DNA of 32,000 nucleotides from Sinorhizobium meliloti (GCF_017876815.1 NZ_JAGIOS010000003.1:90001-122000), one strand, 5' to 3'; shown: positions 3,001 to 20,877, counted from the first letter of the stretch. The notes: a model not told the origin generated them from the sequence alone. Made by a program: numbers and translations.

Positions 3001-3121
3001 GATCCTACTTTTTCTTCCGGCACTGTACGCGGCATGGTTCAGGATCAAGCCGACTGCAGATGACACCCATGAGGAGCCGACCGAGGGGCCGGAATTGCGA
3101 ATAGCAATGGCTGCCGAGTAG
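11..3121 (+). CDS. RND (AcrB/AcrD/AcrF-type) efflux transporter permease subunit
   Basis: 1036-aa ORF. N-terminal TM helix followed by a large periplasmic loop, and an internally duplicated multi-TM layout. AcrB-family stretches such as LGLLVDDAIIAIEVMV and GLAGILMRNTLILTE. ATG sits at the window edge, so the adaptor gene is presumably upstream. Confidence 0.9.
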   Translation: MSFNLSALAVRERAVTLFFIVLLAAAGVYAFMSLGRAEDPSFTIKTLTVTTVWPGATAREMQDLVAEPLEKRIQELTWYDRVETTTRPGYAFLTVTLKDSTPPTAVEEEFYQARKKLGDEARNLPSGVFGPFVNDEYSDVSFALYALKAKGMPMRELVRQAEVIRQDLLHVPGVKKINILGERPEQIFVEFSYAKLATLGISAQDIAAALQRQNTVTPAGSIDTRGPQVFIRFDGAYNSVQAIADTPIVAAGRTLKLSDFAEVRRGYEDPATYIIRHEGEPAIMLGAVMQQGWNGLELGKALEERSAAIARTLPLGMTLAKVSDQAVNIDAAVGEFMLKFAMALGVVLLVSLLSLGWRVGIVVALAVPLTLAVVFLIMLETGRFFDRITLGALILALGLLVDDAIIAIEVMVVKMEEGMDRIKAAAYAWSHTAAPMLSGTLVTIIGLMPVGFARSTAGEYAGNIFWVVGFALIVSWFVAVIFTPYLGVKMLPAIKPVEGGHHAIYDTPNYRRLRSFIKFAVRHKFITCAVVGVVMALSVVGMGGVKQQFFPTSDRPEVLVEVRMPEGTSIETTTAAVEKVESWLQNQPEAKIVTSYIGQGAPRFFFAMAPELPNPAFAKIVVLTPDSHAREALKLRLRAAVSDGLVPEAYVRVTQLVFGPYTPFPVEFRIMGPDPAQLYQISEKALEIMKGVPDVRQANRDWGNRTPVLRFVPDQDRLNLIGLSPAEAAQQMQLLLSGIRLTQVRENIRNVPVVARSAGESRLDPARLADFSLMSRDGRQVPLDQIGHSEIRFEEPILKRRDRTPVITIRSDINEATQPPEVSQQIMTALQPLIASLPVGYRIEMGGNIEESLKANVALVKIFPAMIAAMLIVIILQVRSLSTMTMVMLTAPLGLAGVVPVLLLFNQPFGFNAILGLIGLAGILMRNTLILTEQIKENKAAGLHDYHAVIEATVQRTRPVILTALAAVLAFVPLTHSVFWGSMAYTLIGGTAVGTVMILLFLPALYAAWFRIKPTADDTHEEPTEGPELRIAMAAE

Positions 3122-3235
3122 CGTCTGCCGCGGGCTTGCCGGCCTTGCCTGCGCGCGAGCTTGGCCAGCCTTACGACTTGCCGCTCGCAAATGCTTCACG
3201 GCGGGCCGTTCCGTTCATCCATTCTGGGGGCATCC

Positions 3236-3766
3236 ATGGATTATCCGGTCCGACCGGGGGCAGATAGCGAAAACATGCGTGCACGCATCCAGGAGGTGGC
3301 GGAGGAGCACTTCCGTCGTGTAGGTCATCACAAGACGTCCGTAGCCGACATAGCCTCTGAACTCGGCATGAGCCGGGCGAACGTCTACCGTTTCTTCCCC
3401 TCCAGGGATGCAATCAAGGAATCCATCTGCAGGCGGGTCTTGGACAGTACCGCCGAGCTCGCCCTTACGATCGCACGCAGGAGCACGCCGCCCTCGGAGA
3501 AACTCGAGGAACTCCTGACCGCCGTTCACCATCACAACAAGACGAAACTGCTCCACGACAGGCAGATGCACGACCTGATCGTAGCCGCCATGCAGGAGAA
3601 CCGGCCGGTCATCAAGGTGCATGCTGAGCAGATGATGACGATTCTCGAGGCAATCATCCGCGAGGGCTCGAAACGGGCCAGTTCGAGGTCGAAGATCCCG
3701 CCGAAGCGGGCTTGCCTGAGCAAATTCGTCCTAAAGTCTCTCGAAAGGTCGGGCTATGCCCGCTGA
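3236..3766 (+). CDS. TetR/AcrR family transcriptional regulator, 3' end apparently frameshifted or truncated
   Basis: N-terminal HTH region RIQEVAEEHFRRVGHHKTSVADIASELGMSRANVYRFFPSRDAI is classic TetR_N. ATG at 3236 follows TGGGGG; alternative starts at 3161, 3191 and 3275. From about 3664 the called frame becomes basic low complexity (GSKRASSRSKIPPKR), while the +2 frame reads GLETGQFEVEDPAEAG, a typical TetR C-domain motif. Confidence 0.7.
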   Translation: MDYPVRPGADSENMRARIQEVAEEHFRRVGHHKTSVADIASELGMSRANVYRFFPSRDAIKESICRRVLDSTAELALTIARRSTPPSEKLEELLTAVHHHNKTKLLHDRQMHDLIVAAMQENRPVIKVHAEQMMTILEAIIREGSKRASSRSKIPPKRACLSKFVLKSLERSGYAR

Positions 3767-4074: not shown

Positions 4075-4524
4075 ATGAGCCTGACGCGACGTCATATGCT
4101 GACCAGCACAATAGGAACAGTGGCATGTGCGGTTGCCCTGCTGACGCCGAAGCATACCCGGGGGACGGATGAGGTTGAGGACTTTCTCTTCCGTATAACT
4201 GGGCGGAAGGCAACCCCCTCGAATCGGCTTCGCCTCGTGATGCCGGCGGAATTCTCGACCGGGTATACGGTGCCCATGAGCATCTCGGTAGATAGTCCGA
4301 TGACCGAGGCCGACCACGTCAAATCCGTCCGTGTATTCGCTCCGAAGAACCCGCTCGTCGAAGTGGCACAGTTCCATTTCGTCCCGGGGCGCAGCCTCCC
4401 CCGCGTCTCGACGCGCGTCCGGCTTGCTGCCCCGCAACATGTGGTGGCACTCGCTGAGATGAGCAACGGTAACCTGCTGACGGCGAAGGCCTGGGTGGCT
4501 GTCGCCACCAATGGCTGTCTCTGA
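4075..4524 (+). CDS. soxY: SoxY-like sulfur carrier protein (Tat signal, C-terminal cysteine arm)
   Basis: Twin-arginine signal MSLTRRHMLTS. Immunoglobulin-like body with the SoxY-type segment VKSVRVFAPKNPLVEVAQFHF. A Cys is second from the C-terminus (..VATNGCL). SD GGAGA lies 7 nt before the ATG. Directly followed by soxZ. Confidence 0.8.
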   Translation: MSLTRRHMLTSTIGTVACAVALLTPKHTRGTDEVEDFLFRITGRKATPSNRLRLVMPAEFSTGYTVPMSISVDSPMTEADHVKSVRVFAPKNPLVEVAQFHFVPGRSLPRVSTRVRLAAPQHVVALAEMSNGNLLTAKAWVAVATNGCL

Positions 4525-4545
4525 AAGTTACGCAAGGAGGTAGGC

Positions 4546-4872
4546 GTGACCACTCCCATACCGCGTGTGATGGTTCCGGGCTCGGCGACAAAAAACGAAG
4601 TGTTCACGGTCAAGGCCATCATCCAGCACCAGATGGAGACGGGGCTGCGCACCGATTCCACGGGCAAGACGATCCCGCGGAAGATCATCAATCAGTTCGT
4701 CTGCCGTTACGGCGGAGTCGAGGTCTTCCGTACCGATCTGCACGAAGCCGTCTCGGCCAATCCGTTCCTTGAGTTCCAGTTGCTCGCGACGGGAAACGGT
4801 CTTCTTGAGTTCTCCTGGCGGGAGGACGGCGGCGCGACCTATTCGCTGTATCACGACATAGTGGTCACCTGA
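4546..4872 (+). CDS. soxZ: SoxZ sulfur carrier complex subunit
   Basis: 108 aa. VKAIIQHQMETGLRTDSTGKTIPRKIINQF and AVSANPFLEF match the conserved SoxZ core. GTG start preceded by AGGAGG at 5 nt. Confidence 0.85.
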   Translation: MTTPIPRVMVPGSATKNEVFTVKAIIQHQMETGLRTDSTGKTIPRKIINQFVCRYGGVEVFRTDLHEAVSANPFLEFQLLATGNGLLEFSWREDGGATYSLYHDIVVT

Positions 4873-4873
4873 C

Positions 4874-5245
4874 ATGAAGCGGGAACGGGCGGCCGCGACC
4901 GTCTCGCGTGCGAAGGGCCTCGCAGCCGAAATCCGGTGGTTGCTCGGTATTTCGCTTTGCGCGATCCTCCTGTTTCCCGAAAGGTCCGCTCCTGCGGAAG
5001 TGAGCCAAGGCGCGCAGATCGCCGCGACCTGCGCGTCCTGTCACGACCCGACTGGCGGCGGGCTGGCCATCCCGCCGATTGCGGCATTGGACGAACGGGC
5101 TATCGTGAAAGCCATGCTCGCCTTTCGTGCAAGTGAAAGCCCCAGCCATGTGATGCATGCGGTCGCATTGTCGCTCAGTGACGACGAGCTGGCCGCGACA
5201 GCGCGCTATCTCGCTGACAGAGCCAAAGCCGGGAGGCAGCCGTGA
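4874..5245 (+). CDS. Monohaem c-type cytochrome, FccA/SoxE-like small subunit of sulfide dehydrogenase
   Basis: One CxxCH (CASCH) after a signal-like hydrophobic segment. Class-I cytochrome c layout. Starts 1 nt after the soxZ stop and overlaps the next gene by GTGA, so translationally coupled to the flavoprotein. Confidence 0.75.
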   Translation: MKRERAAATVSRAKGLAAEIRWLLGISLCAILLFPERSAPAEVSQGAQIAATCASCHDPTGGGLAIPPIAALDERAIVKAMLAFRASESPSHVMHAVALSLSDDELAATARYLADRAKAGRQP

Positions 5246-6516
5246 CGGATTGGACGCGTCGCCAGATCGGCGCCCTGGCCGGAGGAGCGCTGCTGGCGGT
5301 GGCTGCACCACACACTGTTCGCGGTCAGGGACGGGCTAAGGTTGTAGTGATCGGCGGCGGCATCGGCGGCGCAACGGTTGCCCGATACCTCGGCGACATG
5401 AAGTCAATTGACGTCACACTGATCGAACCGAACTCCACCCACGTCACCTGCTTCTTCAGCAGCCACTACCTTGCCGGTCTTCGCTCGCTCGCCTCCCTGA
5501 CTTTCGGCCTGGAGACGCTGGCCGAAGGCCACGACATAACGATCATCCGCGACAGCGCCGTGGCGATCGACCCCGCCGGAAGGGCTGTCGAGCTTCGCGG
5601 CGGCACAAAGCTCTCCTATGACCGCCTCGTCGTCGCCCCGGGGATCGCCTTCAAGTTCGGCGAGATCGAGGGCTATGATGAGGACGCGGCAAAGATCATG
5701 CCGCATGCCTGGATTGCCGGACCCCAGAGTGAACTGCTGCGCCGGCAGCTCGAAAGCATGGACGACGGCGGTGTGTTCGTTATCGCTGCGCCTCCAAACC
5801 CGTTCCGCTGCCCGCCAGCCCCATATGAGCGGGCCTCGCTGGTCGCTTACTATTTCAAACAGTTCAAACCGAAATCGAAGATACTCATTCTCGACGCGAA
5901 GGATCAGTTTTCGGGTCAGGAACTGTTCCAGGATGCGTGGTCGCGTCACTATCCGGGCATAATTGAATGGCTACCTTCTCAGTTCACCGGGGCCATCAAA
6001 GCCGTAAATGTCGCGGCGCGATCGGTGGTCACAGAAGGCGAGACGTTCAGGGCGGCAGTCGCCAATATTATTCCTGCCCAGAAGGCGGGCCTCATCGGCG
6101 AGAAGGCAGGTCTTACGGACGCATCCGGCTGGTGCCCGGTCGATCCAGTGACGTTCGAGTCGACGTTGCAGCCCGGCATCCATGTCGTAGGCGACTCAAT
6201 TATCGGCGGCGACATGCCGAAGTCTGCCTTTTCTGCCAACAGCCAGGCCAAAGCATGCGCTTTTGGCATTGCGGCTTCCCTCACGGGTTCGCCTCAGTTT
6301 CCGCCGCACCTGTTCAACTCGTGCTACACGTTTCTAGCGCCCGACGACGCTTTCACCAATGCCCTTACCTTCGCACCCGAGGGCGGAAGGATAAAAACCG
6401 TGAAAATGTTCATCAGCAAGGTGGGCGAGAGCGCTGAGGTCCGCCGCCGCACCGCCCTTCACGCCGTGGGCTGGTATTCCGCCTTCACTGCAGACGTGTT
6501 CGGCGGTGGCCCCTGA
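5242..6516 (+). CDS. fccB: Flavocytochrome c sulfide dehydrogenase flavoprotein subunit (FccB/SoxF family)
   Basis: Tat signal TRRQIGALAGG. FAD fold KVVVIGGGIGGATVARYL. Family-typical FRCPPAPYERASLVAYYFK and PKSAFSANSQAKACA. Confidence 0.85.
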   Translation: MTDWTRRQIGALAGGALLAVAAPHTVRGQGRAKVVVIGGGIGGATVARYLGDMKSIDVTLIEPNSTHVTCFFSSHYLAGLRSLASLTFGLETLAEGHDITIIRDSAVAIDPAGRAVELRGGTKLSYDRLVVAPGIAFKFGEIEGYDEDAAKIMPHAWIAGPQSELLRRQLESMDDGGVFVIAAPPNPFRCPPAPYERASLVAYYFKQFKPKSKILILDAKDQFSGQELFQDAWSRHYPGIIEWLPSQFTGAIKAVNVAARSVVTEGETFRAAVANIIPAQKAGLIGEKAGLTDASGWCPVDPVTFESTLQPGIHVVGDSIIGGDMPKSAFSANSQAKACAFGIAASLTGSPQFPPHLFNSCYTFLAPDDAFTNALTFAPEGGRIKTVKMFISKVGESAEVRRRTALHAVGWYSAFTADVFGGGP

Positions 6517-9482: not shown

Positions 9483-10091
9483 ATGGAGGGGCGGAACGAT
9501 CCGCATCGGGCTGCGACTTTCCACCGGGCGTTTTTTTATGGCCTCGTTTGCGCTGCGGTATTCGTCACCATGCCGGCTTTCGCTGCTTCGCCGGCGACTG
9601 TTGGTGGCCCATTCAATCTCATCGCACCCGATGGGGCCGTGGTGACCGATGCGAGGTTTCGCGGTAAATGGATGCTGGTCTTCTTCGGCTACACCTATTG
9701 TCCCGATCTCTGTCCGACGACGCTGAGCGAGATCGCTATCGCACTCGACAGGCTTGGCCCCGAGGCGGCGAAGGTGCAGCCGATCTTCATCACCGTCGAT
9801 CCCGAACGTGATACGCCTGAGGTAATGGGGCAATATACTGGCGCCATCGACCGGCGAATCTTGGGATTGACTGGCGATAAGCAGCAGATCGCCGCGGTGT
9901 CGCACAAATACGGCGCTTATAGCGAACGCCATCCACCGGATCCGGGCACCGGCGACTATGTCGTCGATCATAGTACTTACATCTACATCATGAATCCCAG
10001 CGGCAAGTTCGTTCGCGGCCTGCAGGCCGGCACGCCCGGTGATGCTATGGCCGACGCGCTGCGGCGTCTGATGCGGCAGAACGGCGAGTGA
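9483..10091 (+). CDS. SCO1/SenC family copper chaperone (thioredoxin fold)
   Basis: AAGGAGG lies 6 nt before the ATG. N-terminal membrane anchor. Copper-binding CPDLCP in [25 protein letters not shown]. Distal His in [17 protein letters not shown]. Confidence 0.9.
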
Positions 10092-11386
10092 TGGCCACGC
10101 TGACGGTGCGTGCGGATACGGGGAAGGCCATGCCTGAACATTTGTCGCATTCCAAAAGGTTCGGGACGGCGCAATATGATCACTTCTTCGCCGACGCTAT
10201 GGCGCAAATCCATGCCGAGCAGCGCTATCGTGTGTTCGCAGACCTCGAACGGATGGCCGGCGATTTTCCCCGCGCACTCTGGCATGGACCGAGCGGGTCG
10301 CAGGAAGTTATCATTTGGTGTTCGAACGACTATCTGGGCATGGGGCAGCACCCCAGCGTGATCGCCGCCATGACTGAAGCCGCGAAGCGTCTGGGAACAG
10401 GCGCGGGGGGCACGCGCAATATATCCGGAACCACTCATCCGCTGCTCGAGTTGGAGATCGAACTCGCGGATCTTCATCACAAGGAAGCGGCGCTGGTTTT
10501 CACCTCAGGATATGTCTCAAACCAGACAGGCATCTCCACGATTGCAAAGCTGGTCCCCGATTGTGTCATCCTCTCGGATGCGCTCAACCATAATTCGATG
10601 ATCGAGGGTATTCGGCAGTCGGGCTGCGAAAAGCGGATCTTCCGTCACAATGATCACCGCCACCTCGAGGAATTGCTGAGGACGGTGGGGCGGGGGCGGC
10701 CGAAATTGATCGTATTCGAAAGCCTCTATTCGATGGATGGCGATATCGCTCCGATTCGCCGCATCTGCGATCTTGCCAAATATTACGGGGCCATGACTTA
10801 CCTCGATGAGGTCCATGCCGTCGGCATGTACGGCCCGCGCGGTGGCGGCATCGCTGAACGAGACCGTGTCATGCACCGGATCGATGTTATCGAAGGAACG
10901 CTTGCCAAGGCCTTCGGCTGCCTTGGTGGCTACATAGCGGGAACCGTCACCCTCATCGATGCGGTTCGCTCCTACGCGCCGGGGTTCATATTCACCACGG
11001 CTTTACCGCCACCAATTTGTGCCGCGGCCACCGCCGCGATCCGCCATCTGAAGGTGTCTCACTCTGAGCGATGCGCTCATCAGGACCGCGTTCAGCGGGT
11101 AAAGGCAGAGCTAAACGGGGCGAGGCTGCCGGTCATGGCCAGTGGCAGTCACATTGTTCCCCTGCGCGTCGGCGATCCCGCGAAGTGCAAGGCAGCGAGC
11201 GATATGCTGCTCGAGGCTCATCGTATCTACATCCAGCCGATCAACTATCCTACCGTGGCGAGGGGAACCGAGCGGCTGCGCATCACGCCCTCTCCGTGCC
11301 ACGACGACATCATGATCAGTCAACTCGTGGCCGCGCTCAGCGAGGTCTGGGATGAACTCGGGCTGCCACGCGGAAGTGCCGCCTAG
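10091..11386 (+). CDS. hemA: 5-aminolevulinate synthase (ALAS, C4 haem pathway)
   Basis: [51 protein letters not shown] and the PLP-lysine motif EGTLAKAFG. The ATG at 10091 overlaps the sco stop (TGATG). Alternative starts are GTG 10088 and ATG 10130. Canonical ALAS would align from about QYDHFF. Confidence 0.9.
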
Positions 11387-11502
11387 CGGCGGAAATAAGA
11401 GACACCGCGTGAGCCTTAAAACAACGACTGCGTCAATTGCAAAGCGTTATTGCGTCCTTTGGTCATCCGCTCAGATGCGCGACGCAAAATAGGGAGGGAG
11501 AT

Positions 11503-13143
11503 ATGACGGCCAAGGAGATCAGGCTCGCTTTCCGGGCGCGCGATAGCATGCTGCATGGGATCGAGACGCTTGCACGCGCCGTCGCTGTCACGCTTGGCCC
11601 CCGGGGTCGAAACGTCGCCATCAACCGCTCCTTCGGCACAAAAATAACTAAGGACGGCGTGACGGTAGCAAGAGAAATCGAACTCGAGGACAAGTTCGAG
11701 GACATGGGCGTTCAGTTGCTCAGGCAGGTCGCCATCAAAACCTCGTATCAGGCGGGCGACGGAACGACCACCGCGGTGGTCCTCGCCGACGCAATTCTCA
11801 GGGGCGGTGTCCGAGCGGTCACTGCTGGCATGAACCCGATGGACCTGAAGCGCGGGGTTGATCGTGCCGTCGAGGCAGTCGTCGCGGAGTTGAAACAAAA
11901 TGCTAGATCTGTCGCTTCAAATGTCGAGATCGCGCAGGTCGCCACGATTTCGGCCAACGGAGATCGGGAGATCGGCCAGATCATCGCCGATGCGATGGCG
12001 GAGGTCGGCAAAAACGGCGTGATCATGATCGAGGAAGGGAGATCGCTCGAAACTGAAAGCGAAGTCATCACCGGGATCCAGTTCGACCGCAGCTACATCT
12101 CTCCCTATTTCGTCACCAACCGAGACAAAATGCGGGTGGAAATGGAAGAGGCACTCATTCTCGTTTGCGAGACGAAGCTGTCGAGCCTTAGCCAAATTTT
12201 GCCGCTTCTGGAAAAGGTCGTAGAGGCTGACAAGCCGCTTCTCATCATCGCCGAGGACTTCGAGGCTGAAGTCAGGGCGGCGCTTGTTGTCAACAGGCTC
12301 CGTGGCGGCCTCAAAGTGGCTGCTGTCAAGGCGCCGGCCTATGGCGAGCTCCGCAAGGCGATCCTGCAAGACATAGCACTGCTCACCGGCGGAACGGTTA
12401 TCTCGGAGGAGCTAGGTCTTAAGCTCGAGAGCATATCGCTCGACCGCCTCGGACGGGCCCGGAAGGTTAGAGTCGACAAACAAAATACCACGATCGCGGA
12501 AGGAGGCGGGTCAAGCGTGGAAATCGCTGGGCGGATCGCTGCGATCGGGGCGCAGCTCGAGCTAACTACGTCCGACTTTGATCGGGAAAAACTTCAGGAG
12601 CGGCTGGCACGGCTCTCCGCCGGGATTGCTGTGATCCGCGTCGGCGGCGCGACCGAGTCGGCGGTCAGGGAGAAGAAGGACCGCATCCGCAACGCCATGC
12701 ACGCCACCCGTGCCGCCGTAGAGGAGGGCATCCTGCCGGGCGGTGGGGTCGCGCTGCTGCGCGCAAGCAAGGCGATCCGGACTTTGAAGGTCGGGAACCT
12801 CGACCAGCAGGCCGGCATCAATATCGTCAAGGAAGCCGTAATGTGGCCGGCGAAGCAGATTGCGTCCAATGCGGGCGAGGAGGGCTCGGTCGTGGCCGCT
12901 AGAATTCTCCAAAACGATGACTACGGCTGGGGTTACGATGCGCAGGCTGGAACCTTTCGCGATCTTTTGGCGGCAGGTATTGTCGATCCCGCCAAAGTCG
13001 TGCGCACGGCGCTCCAAGGTGCCGCCTCCGTGGCCGGCCTCATGATCATGACGGAAGCGATGTTAGCCGAGGTGCCCGGCCCGCCGCCGCCTGAGCTTCC
13101 CGGCCATCATGACCATGAGGATAATCTCGACATTGATTTCTAG
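11503..13143 (+). CDS. groEL: Chaperonin GroEL (Cpn60), divergent copy with no adjacent groES
   Basis: ATG at 11503 preceded by [58 protein letters not shown] and [11 protein letters not shown] are all present. The C-terminus is ..[22 protein letters not shown] rather than a GGM repeat. Confidence 0.9.
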
Positions 13144-13511
13144 CTCATCCCGCCGGTTCAGAGTGGTAGAGCTCTTCCGTGACAAATAGGAGGCGAGAGA
13201 CGTTCTCGGCGCCCGCCATGGAGTAAGCTCGATGGCTAAACCGGTCCAGTCTGCAGTCCTCTCGCGACGCGCCCTGCAACGGCGCGACATTTCCAACCAG
13301 ACGATGGCTGCTAGATGTAGCTGTACTCGACCGGCCGTGGCAGAGAAGCTGGATGCGGTGGCGGATGATCGGGATCATCTCGCGGCGACAGCCCTAGAGG
13401 GGCCAATGGGCGACGCCGCTATGCGCAGCAATATCGGCCGCATCACCGGTTATCGGCGGTCCAAATCGTTATGGCGAAGCGCGATGCGCGCCGATCCCGC
13501 TCGCATCGTTC

Positions 13512-13754
13512 TCACGGCTCGCGTTCAGGAAGGTCGAAGTTGAGCTGCAACATTCGCGCTATGTTTATCAGAATCGTCTCACAGACTTTCTCTTGATTAG
13601 GATCGAGATATTTGACAGTCCAGTTTGCCCCGTTCTCCTTGGTTTCGAGCCGCTGAATCACAAAATCGGTGACGTGCTCGCAGCCCGGTTCCTTATGAAG
13701 ATCCGCGAGGATCAATTCCTTAAGCTCCGAAGCTTCCTTTGTATGTCTTTGCAT
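13512..13754 (-). CDS. Hypothetical small protein (80 aa), AT-richer than its surroundings
   Basis: ATG at 13754 preceded by GGAAGGAGA at 6 nt. Soluble-looking sequence MQRHTKEASELKELILADLHKEPGCEHVTDFVIQRLETKENGANWTVKYLD.. with no family recognised. Confidence 0.45.
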   Translation of the reverse strand: MQRHTKEASELKELILADLHKEPGCEHVTDFVIQRLETKENGANWTVKYLDPNQEKVCETILINIARMLQLNFDLPEREP

Positions 13755-13888
13755 GGCCGCTCTCCTTCCGGATGACAACTTTCGACGCATCGCTCAACTC
13801 CATAGTCGCGATCTACGTCATGGCTAGACATGGTACTGTTTTGGCTTTATTTTTAAAAGTTGCCCCTCGTTCTCATCAGGTGGCTTCT

Positions 13889-14042
13889 ATGACGATGCGC
13901 GAGTTGATGAGCGGGTTACTGGCGCATCGAGAAGTCGAACCAGGGCGAAAAGATCGATCCCGTGATGGAGGCGATGAAGGCGCTCGAGACGTACATCACC
14001 TGATCGAACACCGGCTCGGAGTTGGTGCCACGCAAATACCAG
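13889..14042 (+). pseudogene. Relic of the 3' third of a paralogue of the cytochrome c gene at 6788-7258
   Basis: The relic reads TMRELMSG, then a frameshift, then YWRIEKSNQGEKIDPVMEAMKALETYIT*SNTGSELVPRKY. The intact protein reads TLRDMINWCIEKPNQGAKIDPESEAMKALEAYITWSNSGSVLQPGKY. In-frame TGA at 14001-14003 where the intact gene has TGG. No haem site and no start codon. Confidence 0.65.
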
Positions 14043-14152
14043 CGTAGGGGGCACCGCCTGCAGGGAGCGCGCCGCGAGTCCGCGATCGGGATGCCGGAGG
14101 ATGGGGCTGAAGCAGTCGTGCGGCCGAGGAACCGCGCGGGGAGGTCTATGCG

Positions 14153-15607
14153 TTGGCAGAGACTGGGATGGAGCTGCGCGGCAACTTTGCGAACGTTGAC
14201 CTGGATGCGCTGGTCGACCACCGGGTCGTGCGGACCTGGCTCTATTTCGGCATGTTCTGGCTGATGGTGACGCCATCCGTTGGCGTTTTGATATCGAGCA
14301 CCTTCAACTATCCCGACTATCTCGGCTCGGGGAACCTCGAGCTCACCTTCGGCCGGCTGCGCCCGGTCCACGTCAACGGTGTTATCTTCGGCGCCTTCTC
14401 GACGCTTTTCATAGGCCTTTGCTACTATCTCGTGCCGCGTCTGTCGGGGGTGCGGGTGATATGGTCAGAGTGGTCGGTTCTTCTCGCATGGGTCTGGAAC
14501 ATCGCAACACTTGCCGGTTTGGTCGGCTTGCTGATCGGCGACAGTGACGGTTTGGAAGCCGGAGAGCTTCCGCTATACGCTAAAGTCGCATTCTTCATCG
14601 TGGTGGGTGTTGCTACCGCGCAGTTCCTGATCACGATCAGTCGAAGGCTCGAGCCAGCGATCTATGTCGCGCTGTGGTACCTGATCGCCACTTTCGTGTG
14701 GACGACGATGAACTTCGTGCTTGGAAGCTTCATCCTGCCATACACGATCTCGGGCATCAACAGCGCCGCCTTCCATGGCCTCTATCTCCACTACATCGTT
14801 GGGCTGTGGCTAACGCCCGCAGGCTACGTGATCATCTACTATTTCCTGCCGGTCAGCGCGCGAAATCCGCTCTATGCCCATAAGCTCTCGCTGGTAGGCT
14901 TCTGGTCCCTGGCATTGTTCTACCCGTTCGTCGGCATCCACCATTACCTCTACAGCCCGATCGCCGACTGGGCCGAGACCTTGGCCGTCGTCACGTCGAT
15001 GCTGCTGATCATTCCGGTGTGGACGGTGCTGGTGAACTTCTTCGGCACCATGATGGGCAAGTGGCATGAGTTCGGCAGAAACCTGCCGGCGAAGTTCCTG
15101 ATCATGGGCTCGCTCATGTATCTCGTCGGCTGCTTCCAAGGCTCGACCGAGGCGCTGCGGCAGGTGCAGCAGCCGACCCATTTCACCGATTTCGTCATCT
15201 CGCATTCGCATCTTACCGTATTCGGCACCTTCGTCGTCTGGGCGATGGGGGGCCTCGTCTATACTTGGCCGCGGCTGTTCGGGCGCGAACTCTGGTCATT
15301 CAAGCTCGGCAACTGGTCGTTCTGGCTGATCACAGTCGGCATTGCGACCATGGGCCTGGTTCTCACAGCGGGCGGCCTGCAGCAGGGTTACCAATGGATG
15401 AATGGCGTCGAATGGCTCGACTCCCTCGTCTGGGTGAAGCCCTACTGGCTGGCGCGGACCCTGGCAGGTATCAGCATGGATATCGGCATTTCGCTGCTGG
15501 TGGTGAATCTGATGTTGACTGCGCTGACCAGCCCGGCGGCTGAGGCGCGACGCGTCGGCAGGCCGGAGGGGCCTATCCAGGCCCCGGCGGGAGGGCTCGC
15601 ACGGTGA
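14153..15607 (+). CDS. ccoN: cbb3-type (C-family) haem-copper oxidase subunit I, CcoN/FixN-like, divergent
   Basis: 12-TM protein. FGRLRPVHVNGVIFG (low-spin haem His). AAFHGLYLHY (CuB His). YPFVGIHHYLY has Y-x5-HH, the C-family cross-link Tyr plus two CuB His. ISHSHLTVFG carries the two haem His. TTG at 14153 lies 8 nt after GGGGAGG. Alternative start ATG 14168. Confidence 0.9.
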   Translation: MAETGMELRGNFANVDLDALVDHRVVRTWLYFGMFWLMVTPSVGVLISSTFNYPDYLGSGNLELTFGRLRPVHVNGVIFGAFSTLFIGLCYYLVPRLSGVRVIWSEWSVLLAWVWNIATLAGLVGLLIGDSDGLEAGELPLYAKVAFFIVVGVATAQFLITISRRLEPAIYVALWYLIATFVWTTMNFVLGSFILPYTISGINSAAFHGLYLHYIVGLWLTPAGYVIIYYFLPVSARNPLYAHKLSLVGFWSLALFYPFVGIHHYLYSPIADWAETLAVVTSMLLIIPVWTVLVNFFGTMMGKWHEFGRNLPAKFLIMGSLMYLVGCFQGSTEALRQVQQPTHFTDFVISHSHLTVFGTFVVWAMGGLVYTWPRLFGRELWSFKLGNWSFWLITVGIATMGLVLTAGGLQQGYQWMNGVEWLDSLVWVKPYWLARTLAGISMDIGISLLVVNLMLTALTSPAAEARRVGRPEGPIQAPAGGLAR

Positions 15608-17268
15608 ACGTTCGCTTCTTCGCGCTGTTCGCCGGCGTCTTCTGCATCACCCTTGCGGTGATCACGCAGGGCGTGCTGCCCTTCGTGGAGCCGTCCTCGC
15701 GAACTACGCGCGTGACCTCGGTGGTGCGCACGGATTTCGGCCAGCTGAAATGGATGGTTTCAGAGGCGACGGACTACACCGAGCAGCAGCTTCGCGGCCG
15801 CAATATCTATCTGCGCGAAGGCTGCTGGTACTGCCATTCCCAATTCGTGCGGCCAGTGACCGGCGAGATCCGCCGCTGGGGACCGGTGAGCGAGGCCGGC
15901 GAATACGCCTATGACGTGCCGCACCTGTTTGGCACACGCCGGATCGGACCAGACCTGACGCGCGTCGGCCTGAAATACAGCGACGAATGGCACCTGGCGC
16001 ACTTCTACGATCCGCGGATGCTGGTGCCGGACTCGATAATGGCGCCGTATCGCGGCCTCTTCCACGAGCCCGATGCAGCTGTCCGTATCGTTGACGACGG
16101 CGCTGGCAATCGGACCCTGGAAAGGACAGAGGTCACCGAGGGCATGTTCGACTTCGACAGCCAGCAGGCGATCCAGCTGACGCCGAATGCATCCGGGTTG
16201 CTGTTCGTGCCGCTGAAGGCGCGCGATAGAAAGCCGATCATCCTGACGCCGAACGACGAATACGCAGGCGAAACCGTCAGCATCGCGACGGAAACGGAAT
16301 CGGTGGCGGCGCTCATTTCTTACCTCCAGAAGCTCGGCACGAACCGAGGTAAATGGCGCGATCTTTTCGAGCCGCAAAGCCTGGAGGTCATGGATGCGAC
16401 GATGCCGCGCTCCGAGGAATGGATTGCTTATGGCAAGGAAGTCTATGAGCGCCGCTGCATCGGTTGCCACGGTGCCAAGGGCGACGGCAATGGGCCGGCC
16501 GCCACCTTCATGTATAACCAGCGGCCTAGGGATTTCACGTCCGCAGTCTTCAAGTTCAGGTTGACAAAGGAGCCCCTGCCCACGGACGGCGACATGCTGC
16601 GCACCATTACTCGCGGCATCCGCGGCACGGCAATGCCCCCTTGGTACGACCTGCCGCTCAACGATCGGCTGGCGGTGATCCAGTACATCAAGTATGAGCT
16701 AGCGGTTGACCGTTCCAATCCCGCCAATCCTTACGCTTTCTTCGTCGAGGAACCGCCTGGCCCACCCTTGTATATCGGGCGGCCGCCGATCCCGTCCCAG
16801 ACGATGCTGGACCGTGGCAAGGAGATTTGGCAGGTGGCGAAATGCTGGGAGTGCCATGGCCAAGGCGGCAAGGGAGACGGCGAGAAGGCTGCCGGCCTCA
16901 AGGATGATCTCGGGTTCGTCAGCGTGCCGGCCGACCTCACCAGCGGCCAATTCAAGTCTGGCCCGGCCGTCGAAGACATCTTCCGGACGATAACTACGGG
17001 CCTTAGCGGCACGCCGATGCCGTCCTACCGGAATGCATTTCCGGACGAGGACCGGTGGGCGCTTTCCTATTTCGTGGTAGCGCTTTCCGCCTATAAAGAC
17101 CCGCTCTCGCTGCAGCCGCTCCCGATCGATAAGGAGGCCCGCGCGGCGCTGAACGATCTGGAACTGGTCGCTGACAAGCCTGAGCGAGCGTATGTACCCG
17201 ATCCGTCGGTGCCAGCGTCCGGCCCGCCAGCGCCGCCTGCCGAAGAACAGGCACCCGCCGGAGGTTAG
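15604..17268 (+). CDS. Fused CcoO (monohaem) plus CcoP-like dihaem cytochrome c subunit
   Basis: GTGA overlap with ccoN. The N-terminal anchor plus EGCWYCHSQFVRP, GTRRIGPDLTRVGLKYSDEWHLAHFYDPR, SIMAPY and ALISYLQKLG make a full CcoO. Two further class-I haem domains follow (CIGCHGAKGDGNG and CWECHGQGGKGDG), then a Pro/Ala-rich tail. Three CxxCH in one 554-aa chain. Confidence 0.85.
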   Translation: MNVRFFALFAGVFCITLAVITQGVLPFVEPSSRTTRVTSVVRTDFGQLKWMVSEATDYTEQQLRGRNIYLREGCWYCHSQFVRPVTGEIRRWGPVSEAGEYAYDVPHLFGTRRIGPDLTRVGLKYSDEWHLAHFYDPRMLVPDSIMAPYRGLFHEPDAAVRIVDDGAGNRTLERTEVTEGMFDFDSQQAIQLTPNASGLLFVPLKARDRKPIILTPNDEYAGETVSIATETESVAALISYLQKLGTNRGKWRDLFEPQSLEVMDATMPRSEEWIAYGKEVYERRCIGCHGAKGDGNGPAATFMYNQRPRDFTSAVFKFRLTKEPLPTDGDMLRTITRGIRGTAMPPWYDLPLNDRLAVIQYIKYELAVDRSNPANPYAFFVEEPPGPPLYIGRPPIPSQTMLDRGKEIWQVAKCWECHGQGGKGDGEKAAGLKDDLGFVSVPADLTSGQFKSGPAVEDIFRTITTGLSGTPMPSYRNAFPDEDRWALSYFVVALSAYKDPLSLQPLPIDKEARAALNDLELVADKPERAYVPDPSVPASGPPAPPAEEQAPAGG

Positions 17269-17271
17269 CGC

Positions 17272-17496
17272 ATGCTCGGTTTTGAAGTTACCGGACCCTA
17301 TGTGGGCGCCATGCTGATGAGCCTGGCGGCCCTGTTCTTGTTCATCTGGGGCGTCCTGTCAGGCGCGTTGAGCGGCACCGACAAAGCCGCCAACGGGTTT
17401 TTTGAAAGGGAAATGGAAAATGAGCGATCTGCAGAGCAGCGATCCGGAGAGCCCGAGGCATCCGGAACTGGAGGTGCGTCAAAGCTCGCACCCTGA
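17272..17496 (+). CDS. Small single-TM protein, CcoS/FixS-like (alternatively CcoQ-like)
   Basis: ATG lies 3 nt after the ccoOP stop. One TM helix followed by FIWGVLSGALSGTDKAAN, resembling the CcoS pattern W-x3-SGQ-x-DD..A. Charged tail. The 3' 77 nt overlap the next ORF. Confidence 0.45.
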   Translation: MLGFEVTGPYVGAMLMSLAALFLFIWGVLSGALSGTDKAANGFFEREMENERSAEQRSGEPEASGTGGASKLAP

Positions 17497-17644
17497 ACTG
17501 GAGGACTATGCCGGCGGCCTGATACAGGCGCGTGTGGGGTTCATTCCGCTATGGCTTCTCGTCGTCTACATGCTGCTGTTCGGCTGGGGCCTGTATTACA
17601 TGTATGTCTATTGGGGCGGGCTCGGCCCCGGCCGTCTGTTCTAG
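17420..17644 (+). CDS. Small membrane protein resembling the detached N-terminal anchor domain of CcoP (FixP_N-like)
   Basis: ATG at 17420. The acidic N-terminus contains HPELE twice. EDYAGGLIQARVGFIPLWLLVVYMLLFGWGLYYMYVYW resembles the DGI..P.P.WW..F..T.....Y pattern of FixP N-terminal domains. No haem site. Confidence 0.45.
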   Translation: MSDLQSSDPESPRHPELEVRQSSHPELEDYAGGLIQARVGFIPLWLLVVYMLLFGWGLYYMYVYWGGLGPGRLF

Positions 17645-17677: not shown

Positions 17678-17782
17678 ATGGAGATGTTGGTAGCCAAAAT
17701 TCTCCTTGGGGTCGCCGCATTGAACCTCCTTTTCCTGGCCTTCGAGGTGGCGATAAACGTGCTTCGTCTTTATTTCGGCTGA
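17678..17782 (+). CDS. Unannotated 34-aa single-TM mini-ORF
   Basis: AGGAG lies 2 nt before the ATG (an alternative ATG is two codons in). MEMLVAKILLGVAALNLLFLAFEVAINVLRLYFG. Below the ORF-track cutoff. Fits exactly into the gap in the operon. Confidence 0.3.
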   Translation: MEMLVAKILLGVAALNLLFLAFEVAINVLRLYFG

Positions 17783-17796
17783 CATAGGAGCAGCGG

Positions 17797-17919
17797 ATGC
17801 TACAGGACACCGTCTTCAAGCTCGCTGACGCCGGCTTGCCGCAGATGCTTGGGTTCCTCATCTATGGCGGCTGCACCGTCGGCTTTATCATCTATCTTTT
17901 CTATCTTGTGCGGCAATAG
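17797..17919 (+). CDS. Unannotated 40-aa single-TM mini-ORF (CcoQ/FixQ-like layout)
   Basis: TAGGAG lies 6 nt before the ATG. MLQDTVFKLADAGLPQMLGFLIYGGCTVGFIIYLFYLVRQ. A short polar N-terminus followed by one TM helix, as in FixQ. Confidence 0.35.
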   Translation: MLQDTVFKLADAGLPQMLGFLIYGGCTVGFIIYLFYLVRQ

Positions 17920-17938: not shown

Positions 17939-18667
17939 ATGTTCTACTACCTCGTGATCTTCGCCGCTGGATTTGCAGGCAGCTTTCATTGCATCGGCAT
18001 GTGCGGCGGCTTTGCCTGCGCGTTGGGCCGCGATCAGCGAGGCGGAGGCGCAACCCTCCTTCGCCACCTGCTCTATAATACCGGCCGATTGACAACCTAT
18101 TGCTTTCTGGGCGGGCTCGCCGGTGCGGTCGGTCAGGTCATCTGCACCACGCAAGGTGTAGCGGCGGCGCCGCTCTTTAACGGCTCCCTCGACATCGCCC
18201 AACGAATTCTCGCGATCGTCGCTGGCCTGCTCATGATTGCCATGGCGTTGCAGTTCTTCGGCTTGTTGCAGGTCTTTCATCGCCTTGCGATCGGATTTGG
18301 CGGCAGCACATTTGCTTTGTCCCTGCGCAGTCTGGTGACGGCCCGGAGTAGCGCCGCGCCGCTCGCCTTTGGCGTTTTCAACGGCTTCCTGCCATGTCCC
18401 CTGGTTTATGCCTTCGCCGCCCAGGCGGCGAGCACCGCCGGAGCGCTTCCCGGGTTCCTCGTCATGGCTTGGTTCGGATTGGGAACCTTCCCCGCGATGC
18501 TGATGATGGGCGGCGTTGGCCGGATACTCGGGCCAGCCGGGCGGCGGCGCGGCGTGCGGCTGGCTGGTGGCTTTATTCTTTTTCTCGGTCTCATCACGCT
18601 CGGCCGTGGTCTCCTGCCTTCTCACGCGCATATCGGCCTTGCCTGGCTGGGCGGACATTCCACATGA
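17939..18667 (+). CDS. DsbD_2 / TauE-SafE-like multi-pass membrane protein with paired-cysteine motifs
   Basis: Start set to ATG 17939 (MFYYLVIFAAGFAGSFHCIGMCGGF). HCxxMCGG motif in TM1 and FLPCPLVY in a later TM. About 6 TM helices. Its stop overlaps the ccoI start (ATGA). Confidence 0.75.
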   Translation: MFYYLVIFAAGFAGSFHCIGMCGGFACALGRDQRGGGATLLRHLLYNTGRLTTYCFLGGLAGAVGQVICTTQGVAAAPLFNGSLDIAQRILAIVAGLLMIAMALQFFGLLQVFHRLAIGFGGSTFALSLRSLVTARSSAAPLAFGVFNGFLPCPLVYAFAAQAASTAGALPGFLVMAWFGLGTFPAMLMMGGVGRILGPAGRRRGVRLAGGFILFLGLITLGRGLLPSHAHIGLAWLGGHST

Positions 18668-20877
18668 CTGCGCATGATCATATCCTCTGTAGCCATTGTT
18701 CGCTGCCCGTTGGCGTGCGCCCAATGGAGCGCAGGCTCGACGGTGAGGCTTGCACGTTCTGCTGCTACGGCTGTTGCATCGCCTTTCAGGTGAAGAGCGG
18801 CAGACACGAAGAATGGGAAGCCGCCTGGCTTCTGATCCAGCTTGGCGTGGGTGGCTTTCTCTCCATGAACATCATGATGTTCAGCCTCCTCCTCTATTCG
18901 GACGCATTCACCGGGGTCGATGCGGGCGTGCTGCCGTGGATTCACTTTTTGCTCTGGATCTTCGCGACGCCGGCGGTGGTGCTTCTCGGCGGACCCTATC
19001 TGCGCGAAATGTGGCTCAATGGCATGCAGGGACGAGTGACATCGTCGGCACTCATCGTGCTTGGCGTCGCTGCCGCTTACCTCTACTCGGCGTTTGCCGT
19101 GTTCGAGGGCAGCACGCATGTCTATTTCGACACCGCCGTGATGGTGCTGATGCTATTTACCGTTGGCCGCTATCTCGAGGCTGTTGGCCGCGCAAGGGCG
19201 GCGCGCGACCTCGAACCTCTTCTGGCCGCAGAAAGCGAGAGCGCGACCGTGGTCGATGGCGCGGCAGAGATCCGCGGTCCGGTGCGGGAGGTGTCGGCCG
19301 GCATGCTGGTGCGGGTTCGGCCAGGCGAGCGCATTCCGGTCGACGGCGTGGTTGTCGAGGGGGAATCGAACACCGATGAAGCCGTGATTACCGGAGAAAG
19401 CCGGCAAGTGACAAAGGGCGCCGGCTCCAAGGTGATTGCCGGCAGCATCAATATCGACGGCCCGCTTCTGATCCAAAGCAGCGCTGACGGAACCGCAACC
19501 CGCTGGGCGAGGATTTGCCGGTCGGTGCGCGAAGCGCTCGGCCGTCGCAGCCCAACCCAGCGCCTTGCCGATCGCGTCGTCGGCGTGTCCGTGCCGCTCG
19601 TCCTTGCCCTCGGCGGTCTGACGATCGTTTACTGGGCGCAGTCATTGCCGTTCGATCGGGCGTTGCTAATTGGCCTCTCGGTACTGGTGGTTGCCTGTCC
19701 TTGTGCCGTCGGCCTCGCTGCTCCGATGGCGACATCACTCGGCATCGGCCGGCTGGCGCGGCACGGCTGCCTCGTCCGCGATCCCGGCGTACTCGAGACC
19801 CTCGCACGTGTACGGTTACTCGCCTTCGACAAGACCGGCACTCTGACGGCGGGCAAAGCACGTCTAGTCGGCGTCTACGGCGAGGAGGTCGGCTTTGACC
19901 AAGTGCTGGCGCGCGCCGCCGGTCTGGAGCGCCTTTCCGAGCATGGTCTGGCGCAGGCCATCACGGCAGCCGCCGCTCAGCGGGACATCACGCCGCTCGT
20001 CACCAGCGATGTTCGGACGGTTCCCGGCCGTGGCATCCGCGGCAGCGCCGAAGGCCGGCCCGTGGCGGCAGGGAACGGCAGATTGATGAATGATCTGGGC
20101 TGGCCGCTTCCCCCGTCGCTGGCCGAGCGTGCGCGGTCGTTGGAGGCGAGCGGTCATTCGGTGGTCTATGTGGGTTGGGGCGAGCGGGTTCACGCCGTGC
20201 TGTCGCTCGACGACTCACCGCTTCCCGAGGCGCAGGCCGCGATCGCGGCGCTGCGCAAGCGCGGGCTCGACGCCACGCTGTTGACCGGCGACCTGGCGCA
20301 AGCGGCGGAGCGGATCGCGGCCTTGGTTGGGATCAAGGACGTCCAAGCCGGCCTTTCGCCGGAGGCCAAACGGCTGGCGCTGGATCGGCTCCGCCATGAC
20401 CACGTTTCGGTGGCGATGGTCGGCGATGGGCTGAATGACGGACCGGTCCTGGCCGCCGCAGATATCGGTATCGCCGTCGGCTCCGCCACAGATCTCGCCC
20501 GCGAGACTGCAGGGCTCGTGCTGCCTGCGGATGGATTTTGGATGCTGCCCTGGATCGTCGACGTGGCCCGCGCGGTCCGCAGGACCATCTTGGCCAACCT
20601 TATGTGGGCGTTCGGCTACAACCTCGTCGCGCTGACGTTCGCAGCATTCGGACTTCTGCAGCCAATCCTTGCGGCGGCGGTCATGGCCGGCTCGAGCATC
20701 CTCGTTGTGGTGAATTCGCTGCGGCTGGAGCGGCTGCCCGATCCTGTTCCAGCGCTCATGCCGGCGCAACGATCCGACATCAATGTGGAGCGCACACACA
20801 ACGTAAGCGGCATTTCCGCGATGGCCGGGCCGGCCGTCGGGCATGACCTTGCCACCCGTGGTCCGCTCGATCCTTAA
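18664..20877 (+). CDS. ccoI: Copper-translocating P1B-type ATPase, CcoI/FixI-like
   Basis: Start at ATG 18664 (MTAHDHILCSHCSLP..CTFCCYGCCIAF), giving the Cys-rich CcoI-type N-terminal metal-binding domain with no HMA domain. TGES, CPC in TM6, DKTGTLT, GDGLNDGP. N-x6-YN and M-x2-SS-x5-N form the Cu(I) signature. SEHGL replaces the usual SEHPL. Confidence 0.9.
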   Translation: MTAHDHILCSHCSLPVGVRPMERRLDGEACTFCCYGCCIAFQVKSGRHEEWEAAWLLIQLGVGGFLSMNIMMFSLLLYSDAFTGVDAGVLPWIHFLLWIFATPAVVLLGGPYLREMWLNGMQGRVTSSALIVLGVAAAYLYSAFAVFEGSTHVYFDTAVMVLMLFTVGRYLEAVGRARAARDLEPLLAAESESATVVDGAAEIRGPVREVSAGMLVRVRPGERIPVDGVVVEGESNTDEAVITGESRQVTKGAGSKVIAGSINIDGPLLIQSSADGTATRWARICRSVREALGRRSPTQRLADRVVGVSVPLVLALGGLTIVYWAQSLPFDRALLIGLSVLVVACPCAVGLAAPMATSLGIGRLARHGCLVRDPGVLETLARVRLLAFDKTGTLTAGKARLVGVYGEEVGFDQVLARAAGLERLSEHGLAQAITAAAAQRDITPLVTSDVRTVPGRGIRGSAEGRPVAAGNGRLMNDLGWPLPPSLAERARSLEASGHSVVYVGWGERVHAVLSLDDSPLPEAQAAIAALRKRGLDATLLTGDLAQAAERIAALVGIKDVQAGLSPEAKRLALDRLRHDHVSVAMVGDGLNDGPVLAAADIGIAVGSATDLARETAGLVLPADGFWMLPWIVDVARAVRRTILANLMWAFGYNLVALTFAAFGLLQPILAAAVMAGSSILVVVNSLRLERLPDPVPALMPAQRSDINVERTHNVSGISAMAGPAVGHDLATRGPLDP

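Follow-up and report, generated by a model that had tools for sequence, protein, structure and literature searches.

A probable second, non-canonical cbb3-type cytochrome c oxidase in Sinorhizobium meliloti with a trihaem CcoO-dihaem fusion in the place of CcoP

The subject of this study is a window of 32,000 nucleotides (nt) from Sinorhizobium meliloti, in which all positions are counted from the window start, and within it an oxidase operon whose second gene, at 15604-17268, translates to one chain of 554 amino acids (aa) with three c-type haem motifs. This gene, which we refer to as encoding the trihaem subunit, begins with a GTG start and overlaps the stop codon of a ccoN-like gene by 4 nt, and it is followed by four small open reading frames (ORFs), here named a to d, and by two genes for larger membrane proteins. 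The stretch from ccoN to ORF d (3.8 kb compared) is 100% identical to the megaplasmid of S. meliloti SM11 (NC_017327.1) and was found in 27 S. meliloti plasmid records. The features of the operon, all on the plus strand, are as follows.

14168-15607, plus strand: ccoN-like catalytic subunit (Pfam COX1, 244 bits; annotated start ATG 14168, longest ORF from TTG 14153)
15604-17268, plus strand: trihaem subunit, 554 aa (GTG start; Pfam FixO and two class-I cytochrome c domains)
17272-17496, plus strand: ORF a, CcoS/FixS-like assembly factor with a single transmembrane segment (orthologues match PF03597)
17420-17644, plus strand: ORF b, 74-aa single-transmembrane protein (ATG 17420; conserved family)
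17678-17782, plus strand: ORF c, 34-aa single-transmembrane peptide (AGGAG site upstream; conserved)
17797-17919, plus strand: ORF d, 40-aa single-transmembrane peptide (AGGAG site upstream; annotated as hypothetical)
17939-18667, plus strand: DsbD_2 / TauE-SafE-type membrane protein (Pfam DsbD_2, 148 bits)
18724-20877, plus strand: CcoI/FixI-like heavy-metal (Cu) P1B-type ATPase (TIGR01525, 511 bits; TIGR01511, 448 bits; annotated coordinates)

The trihaem subunit carries its CxxCH motifs at residues 74 (CWYCH, 15823-15837), 285 (CIGCH, 16456-16470) and 414 (CWECH, 16843-16857), and the only hydrophobic segment long enough to span the membrane comprises residues 3-21. The chain continues from this segment into a CcoO/FixO domain at residues 52-247 (Pfam FixO, PF02433, 155.5 bits against a cut-off of 29.6), a linker at 248-270, a dihaem domain at 271-495 with two class-I cytochrome c domains, and a Pro/Ala-rich tail. 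All the features by which the CcoO family is recognized, namely the anchor, one CxxCH, a Met ligand and a C-terminal LQxLG helix, are found in the first part, where M146, the Met sixth ligand, and Y240, Q242 and G245 are invariant in the orthologue alignment. An earlier note on this DNA had claimed that a complete CcoO and two further CxxCH domains form one chain and that a second transmembrane segment is missing from it, and both statements are borne out by these results.

The architecture is widely conserved. By scanning one genome per species, we identified 80 loci that encode the full-length colinear protein at 47-95% identity, in Alpha-, Beta- and Gammaproteobacteria, Acidobacteriota, Gemmatimonadota, Rokubacteria/Methylomirabilota and Entotheonella, hence at least six phyla. 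A word-indexed protein search returned 2967 proteins at E<=1e-10, and the top 120 of these are all 535-582 aa long, have the identical set of three Pfam domains and come from Mesorhizobium, Sinorhizobium, Rhizobium, Phyllobacterium, Methyloceanibacter and many metagenomes. The HMMER search of 1.8 billion cluster representatives adds many more clusters (formed at 50% identity) in which the domains are laid out alike, with identities as low as 35%, and also yields triple fusions of CcoN, CcoO and the dihaem domain of about 970-1000 aa (P0126, P0195). The junction between the C-terminal helix of CcoO and the first added domain, LGT..G.WRD..EP, is conserved among the relatives. One distant member of the fusion family (P0137, 571 aa) has an EF-hand motif in a variable insertion of its CcoO domain (EF-hand_5, E 1e-7).

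The best clue to the identity of the added dihaem module comes from a comparison of residues 274-494 with all sequences in the PDB, in which 6H5L chain B ranks first (E 2e-44, 155 bits). This chain is the dihaem cytochrome kustc0457 of Kuenenia, the partner of the HAO-like protein kustc0458. An AlphaFold2 model of the fusion (pLDDT 75, pTM 0.77), in which confidence is low around the CcoO haem at residues 79-122, was searched with Foldseek against the PDB and gives the same top match, 6H5L_B, with E 2e-17, a TM-score of 0.82 on the target and 36% identity. Residues 271-495 agree with this type of cytochrome over the full length in sequence and fold and have both CxxCH motifs and both Met ligands, M344 and M472, and these motifs and ligands are invariant among the relatives.

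The catalytic subunit also has the essential features of a C-family oxidase. It aligns to the CcoN proteins of P. stutzeri and R. capsulatus with E 1e-49 to 1e-52, and the conserved histidines that would bind haem b (two), haem b3 (one) and CuB (three) are all present. In P. stutzeri numbering, the ligands H60, H207, Y251, H257, H258, H337, H345 and H347 are invariant in 73 of 73 orthologues, as are the channel residues T215, Y223, S240 and Y317. The motif FYPFVGIHHY, with the predicted cross-link tyrosine of helix VII six residues before the HH pair, aligns to VYIWAGPHHLHY and is likewise invariant.

Taken together, these results indicate, at a probability of about three in four, that a second cbb3-type (C-family) cytochrome c oxidase, of non-canonical make-up and with the trihaem subunit in the place of CcoP, is encoded in the window. 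In such an enzyme the kustc0457-type module would do the job of CcoP. Periplasmic donors would reduce the distal haem of the dihaem module, from which electrons would travel over the second haem of the module and the haem of CcoO to haem b and finally haem b3-CuB, much as in the canonical path, where three c haems feed haem b and then the binuclear centre (PMC10556555). Because it is tethered at the C-terminus of CcoO, the module would need no anchor of its own. The operon may also bring its own assembly set, consisting of the CcoS-like ORF a, the CcoI-like Cu-ATPase, the DsbD_2 protein, whose gene is co-located at related proteobacterial and acidobacterial loci, and an SCO protein encoded further upstream.

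The order ccoN, fusion, ORF a and ORF b is kept in about 75 of the 80 loci (tblastn), and ORF a is present in 74. Although ORF a of the window, taken alone, reaches only 12.5 bits with the FixS profile, under its cut-off of 23.1, all of the orthologues scanned (31 of 31) match PF03597 FixS (CcoS), with a best E of 4.7e-8, and therefore ORF a is a CcoS-type maturation factor; the profile describes a single transmembrane segment followed by a W-x-x-x-S-G-x-F/acidic motif. ORFs a and b overlap by 77 nt in different frames (17420-17496). This overlap is a feature of the Sinorhizobium group, and since most other lineages have the two ORFs apart, a recent read-through is the probable origin of the long acidic tail that ORF a has here. 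ORF c is conserved in 43 loci, including those of Acidobacteriota and Rokubacteria, and ORF d in 24, mostly alphaproteobacterial; no Pfam family matched either of them. In the GenBank record that we examined, ORFs a and c are unannotated and ORFs b and d are each a 'hypothetical protein'. The enzyme would be accompanied by as many as three conserved peptides with one helix each (ORFs b, c and d), probably small subunits or assembly factors.

ORF b deserves particular attention. The earlier note had pointed to a 74-aa reading frame from ATG 17420 with one transmembrane helix, and the presence of ORF b in 76 of the 80 loci, always after ORF a, confirms that it is a real gene. Its family numbers 1753 clusters, all unnamed or 'hypothetical' and without a Pfam domain, and is characterized by the conserved motifs E-Y-A-G-G, W-L-L-V-V-Y and Y-W-G-G-L-G-P-G, with G33, G40, W45-L46, V49, Y60 and the C-terminal W-G-G-L-G-P-G invariant. 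Judged from this conservation, ORF b is a genuine and tightly linked component of the oxidase system. The further claim, that ORF b resembles FixP_N, the N-terminal domain of CcoP, has suggestive but sub-threshold backing. FixP_N (PF14715) is the Pfam family that more members match than any other (24 of 41 orthologues, below threshold, best E 1.8e-5), and in some cases the aligned part starts in front of the helix, at profile positions 7-12, but ORF b of the window itself has no match to FixP_N at E<=1. When a FixP_N hidden Markov model (HMM) built only from the N-termini of canonical CcoP proteins was run on the 16,354 six-frame ORFs of 76 loci and the window, ORF b ranked first in 54 of 77 sequences and made up 38 of the 40 best ORFs. 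The helix-start Trp and the Y-x-G-L-G motif are 19 residues apart in ORF b and in Pseudomonas CcoP alike, and the best match of the ORF b profile (E 0.0038) is the anchor of a cytochrome encoded by the third gene of a Ralstonia cluster (IPLGIKLLVAVLIVWGIYYI), a possible intermediate. That ORF b is the counterpart of the CcoP anchor is therefore plausible, with a chance of about one in two. After the cytochrome part had been lost or replaced, such an anchor might perhaps have been kept for its contact with CcoN.

Several observations weigh against this assignment and favour a different explanation, namely that ORF b, as a small subunit or assembly factor specific to its lineage, shares no ancestry with FixP_N and resembles it through the convergent composition of a Trp/Tyr-rich helix. 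The FixP_N matches that we examined individually score 11-19 bits, all under the gathering score of 24.9. With hhalign, ORF b and FixP_N align at a probability of 39-49% over 26-35 columns, essentially the transmembrane helix, and the reversed controls, at 20.1 and 21.5, come near the forward value of 24.6. A reversed FixP_N profile still ranks ORF b first in 28 of the 77 sequences. Because the reversed controls recover so much, part of the signal must come from the Trp/Tyr-rich composition of the helix. In addition, the ORF b-family profile finds chance matches and no CcoP chain among all PDB sequences, and the cytoplasmic motif E-Y-A-G-G of ORF b is unlike W-D-G-I-x-E. The forward profile nevertheless outperforms the reversed one on ORF b, not only in first ranks but also in score (mean 7.0 versus 3.8 bits, maximum 17.7 versus 11.9), and the alignments that extend in front of the helix and the 19-residue spacing from Trp to Y-(P/W-G)-G-L-G common to both families also speak against convergence. 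Convergence is a serious contender, although we consider its chances to be somewhat short of even.

The status of ORF b also bears on a second explanation, the one that the earlier note had put forward, in which the added part is the soluble dihaem domain of CcoP, moved to the C-terminus of CcoO in a permutation of the O/P pair that left the FixP_N anchor orphaned as ORF b. The haem count (one plus two) and the domain order do resemble those of CcoO plus CcoP, the sub-threshold FixP_N matches of the ORF b orthologues and the preference of the canonical FixP_N profile for ORF b over other ORFs agree with such an origin, and there is a weak partial match of residues 400-495 to the ccoP model TIGR00782. 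However, this match reaches only 45.1 bits against a cut-off of 179.95, so that the alignment to CcoO and CcoP profiles proposed in the earlier note recovers the CcoO part by its FixO domain and fails for CcoP. No CcoP chain appears in the PDB sequence search with the fusion at E<=0.01, in which the only cbb3 chains matched are CcoO chains at fusion residues 55-160. With two canonical CcoP proteins of the rhizobial type, BLASTP reaches 24-27 bits, and only around the CxxCH motifs. In the Foldseek search P. stutzeri CcoP (3MK7_C) appears only at rank 18, with a TM-score of 0.18 and a probability of 0.21, behind QcrC, ActE and assorted c6/c552 cytochromes. Neither the Pfam scan nor the hydrophobicity analysis found FixP_N or a transmembrane segment within residues 248-554, and no canonical ccoP was found in the window or within 6 kb at any of the 80 related loci. 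The module also circulates independently of cbb3 oxidases, since it is fused to an ethylbenzene-dehydrogenase-type haem b (EB_dh) domain in another protein (P0188) and has free relatives. FixP_N anchors on these free relatives would have backed an origin from CcoP, but they carry ordinary signal peptides instead. The homology of ORF b to FixP_N is itself no more than plausible, and a permutation of the O/P pair is unlikely. Judged from sequence and predicted fold, CcoO has acquired a mobile module for electron transfer, which is analogous to the haem domain of CcoP and not derived from it. Since the module belongs to the kustc0457 family, CcoP appears to have been functionally replaced rather than permuted.

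A further question is whether the enzyme is mainly an O2 reductase, as an oxidase in which the trihaem subunit replaces CcoP would be, or whether it acts on another substrate, such as NO, or as a sulfur electron sink without proton pumping. The following observations count against an ordinary oxidase. Both CcoN and the CcoO part miss the NCBIfam equivalog cut-offs (TIGR00780, 227.6 against 583.15 bits; TIGR00781, 141.9 against 200.65 bits), and therefore both must be regarded as divergent. Two substitutions, H243G and E323Q in P. stutzeri numbering, are invariant in 73 of 73 CcoN orthologues (the sites are residues 249 and 329 of the 484-aa CcoN ORF). Two canonical CcoN controls both have Glu at position 323, and at position 243 one has His and the other Ser. 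In the P. stutzeri structure (3MK7), Glu323 is reported to be hydrogen-bonded to the haem b3 histidine and His243 to lie in the proton channel; a literature search on Glu323/E383 found no paper. The non-canonical cbb3 clusters of Ralstonia and Paraburkholderia share Q323 and G243, so the pair appears to mark a clade, at sites close to haem b3 and within the proton channel, and O2 affinity, proton uptake or even the substrate could therefore differ. The family of the dihaem module, moreover, was first seen with an HAO-like enzyme that handles nitrogen oxides. On the other side, three CuB histidines together with the cross-link tyrosine are hallmarks of O2 reductases and are absent from nitric oxide reductases (NORs) (PMC11214002), and because this site is kept in CcoN, in fact without variation, the reduction of O2 rather than NO is favoured. 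NorB chains are only remote matches to CcoN (E 1e-5), and genes for Cu delivery (CcoI-like and SCO) accompany the operon. For the same two reasons, the retained Tyr and CuB histidines and the remoteness of NorB, we rejected a placement of CcoN in the 'N2O red' or NOR families of Murali et al. 2024. A main function other than O2 reduction thus appears quite improbable.

Finally, that an assembly or sequencing error created the long ORF by joining separate ccoO and cytochrome genes, as a frameshift or stop splitting 15604-17268 would have revealed and as the several shorter cytochrome coding sequences and the 6 nt longer matched stretch in two of about 30 S. meliloti plasmid records (H56, H57) might suggest, can be dismissed with near certainty because the colinear frame is kept end to end in the 80 independent genomes, and the full-length protein recurs in thousands of database entries with a conserved linker, two independent finished S. 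meliloti genomes carry the sequence at 100% identity, and the RefSeq/GenBank record of a 99%-identical S. meliloti replicon annotates the same 1665-nt coding sequence.

The genes upstream of ccoN in the window provide some indication of what the oxidase may be used for. They include sulfur-type genes, a group of three genes on the minus strand (hereafter the trio), and genes for copper and haem supply.

4075-4521, plus strand: SoxY (sequence comparison)
4525-4869, plus strand: SoxZ (sequence comparison)
4874-5242, plus strand: small cytochrome c (sequence comparison)
5242-6516, plus strand: flavocytochrome c sulfide dehydrogenase (FCSD) flavoprotein (sequence comparison)
7270-6791, minus strand: monohaem SoxA/TsdA-type cytochrome c, trio member 3 (PF21342)
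8408-7275, minus strand: Tat-signal metallophosphoesterase, trio member 2 (sequence comparison)
9227-8523, minus strand: amicyanin-like protein with CarboxypepD_reg, trio member 1 (Pfam, weak PDB matches)
9488-10096, plus strand: SCO1/SenC copper chaperone (Pfam SCO1-SenC, 168.7 bits; annotation)
10135-11391, plus strand: hemA, 5-aminolevulinate synthase (annotation and profile scan)
11505-13145, plus strand: orphan groEL (annotation and profile scan)
13911-14045, plus strand: decayed 3' fragment of a SoxA/TsdA-type cytochrome gene (comparison with relatives)

At 46-49 of the 80 loci, across phyla, the trio stands immediately in front of ccoN and in the same orientation (for example L012, 2037-4490; L028, 1878-4214; L050, 1119-3647), whereas in the S. 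meliloti window it is inverted (minus strand, 9227-6791) and stands apart from ccoN. Its first protein, of about 240 aa, has a CarboxypepD_reg domain and an HNTHG...CDAHGWM motif, and its best PDB matches, although weak, are amicyanins. The metallophosphoesterase has a Tat signal and is 58-97% identical across phyla; we rejected the label 'SoxB-like' for it, since its best PDB relative is a GpdQ-type phosphohydrolase (E 5e-4). The third protein, a monohaem cytochrome of about 155 aa, is of the SoxA/TsdA type and matches PF21342 above threshold (39 bits). Between this SoxA-type cytochrome and ccoN, Rokubacteria and Entotheonella also encode a SoxY-SoxZ fusion (L050, 3667-4530; L067, 3638-4564), and FCSD is encoded within 6 kb of the oxidase in 19 loci. 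The placement of hemA, here a second 5-aminolevulinate synthase gene, and of a groEL without groES between the sulfur-type genes and ccoN is restricted to Sinorhizobium and close relatives. The co-occurrence of hemA and SCO with the oxidase in 16-20 alphaproteobacterial loci suggests a dedicated supply of haem and copper. Immediately upstream of ccoN, the fragment at 13911-14045 corresponds to the last 44 or so codons of a SoxA/TsdA-type cytochrome gene. Its translation reads AGYWRIEKSNQGEKIDPVMEAMKALETYIT*SNTGSELVPRKY, where the counterpart in L012 reads ...INWCIEKPNQGEKIDTDSDAMKALEAYITWSNTGSVLVPGKY, with an in-frame TGA for a conserved Trp and an Arg for a conserved Cys. This fragment is the scar of an insertion of SCO, hemA and groEL and an inversion of the trio, and it marks the ancestral arrangement.

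Such gene linkage suggests that the oxidase may serve a periplasmic pathway for the oxidation of sulfur compounds, in which SoxYZ, the SoxA/TsdA-type cytochrome and flavocytochrome c sulfide dehydrogenase would be the likely natural donors. We further speculate, as a tentative and rather doubtful extension, that the oxidase with ORFs a, b and c, the trio and SoxYZ, often with FCSD, could be a single conserved module and form a self-contained, so far undescribed sulfur compound:O2 oxidoreductase pathway in at least six phyla, with the kustc0457-type domain as a dedicated docking wire for the proteins that oxidise sulfur and E323Q/H243G as a tuning of the oxidase to this use. The remaining features of the window are peripheral. 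At its left end (11-3766) lie genes for an RND efflux pump of the AcrB/AcrD/AcrF family (1036 aa) and a TetR-family regulator; both are missing at the corresponding position in strain ml46 (CP140882.1), so this flank varies between strains. A minus-strand ORF at 13512-13790 has no Pfam match and occurs only in close relatives, at five of the 80 loci (Ensifer, Sinorhizobium, Pseudaminobacter and Mesorhizobium).

Compared with the canonical CcoNOQP/FixNOQP oxidases (3MK7/5DJQ of P. stutzeri, 6XKW of R. capsulatus and 8SMR of P. aeruginosa), the variant has the same C-family CcoN with sites for haem b and haem b3-CuB and the helix-VII tyrosine, a membrane-anchored monohaem CcoO domain and three c-type haems upstream of haem b, and, from the genes alone, it would likewise depend on CcoS and a CcoI-type Cu-ATPase. 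Unlike them, it lacks ccoP and a recognisable ccoQ, carries its two extra haems on the CcoO chain in a domain from another cytochrome family, has Gln at position 323 and Gly at position 243 of CcoN, and is accompanied by the additional micro-ORFs b, c and d; nor did a search for the FixK/anaerobox sequence (TTGA-N6-TCAA) find a match anywhere in the window, including the region upstream of the oxidase genes. The likeness to kustc0457 (6H5L_B) extends over the fold and family of residues 271-495, with 36% identity over about 220 residues and two CxxCH motifs of the His/Met type, but kustc0457 itself occurs free and soluble, in complex with an octahaem enzyme. The best NCBIfam match of the fusion is NF011054, a bifunctional CcoO/cytochrome c, at 180.2 bits; this model covers 294 positions with one extra cytochrome, while the trihaem subunit has two, and because the score lies far under the 447-bit cut-off, the trihaem subunit is not a member. 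Two other clusters have alternative cytochromes in the place of CcoP. The Ralstonia solanacearum megaplasmid (L087, 1352-5627) encodes CcoN, a 207-aa CcoO, a separate anchored monohaem cytochrome c and SCO, and Paraburkholderia fungorum pBIL (L086, 858-3822) encodes CcoN, a 426-aa CcoO with a different dihaem module and a CcoS-like peptide; ORF b is not a free gene in either. The same design principle, an electron-donating cytochrome fused to a small redox subunit, is found in the caa3-type oxidases, but these belong to the A family, their subunit II is a CuA protein, and they are not known to share ancestry with the trihaem fusion.

The existence of CcoO fusions as such is not new, since NCBIfam already models CcoO-cytochrome c and CcoN-CcoO fusions. 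The trihaem variant is widespread and already catalogued in databases, yet undescribed as far as our literature coverage goes: no description of a fused CcoO-dihaem or trihaem subunit was found, although the most relevant survey, of 2008 (Ducluzeau et al., MBE), lay outside this coverage, so that a prior description is possible. Within the same coverage, no description was found of the affinity of the module to kustc0457, the Q323/G243 signature, the micro-ORFs b, c and d or the linkage to sulfur genes.

In many bacteria, among them the nitrogen-fixing rhizobia, it is the cbb3 oxidases that determine how little oxygen still supports respiration, and to our knowledge almost all mechanistic work on them rests on the CcoNOQP form. 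The variant reported here would represent a separate and phylogenetically broad clade in which electron entry is solved differently, through a borrowed dihaem module on CcoO, and which alters two residues thought to matter for the tuning of haem b3 and for proton uptake and brings micro-subunits of its own. Should ORF b prove to be a retained CcoP anchor, this would speak for a function of the anchor that is independent of the cytochrome domain, possibly in stabilising CcoN or in forming the entrance of a proton channel. The linkage to sulfur genes, in turn, suggests a physiological role, and S. meliloti SM11, Cupriavidus necator and Bradyrhizobium are among the culturable hosts in which it may be examined.

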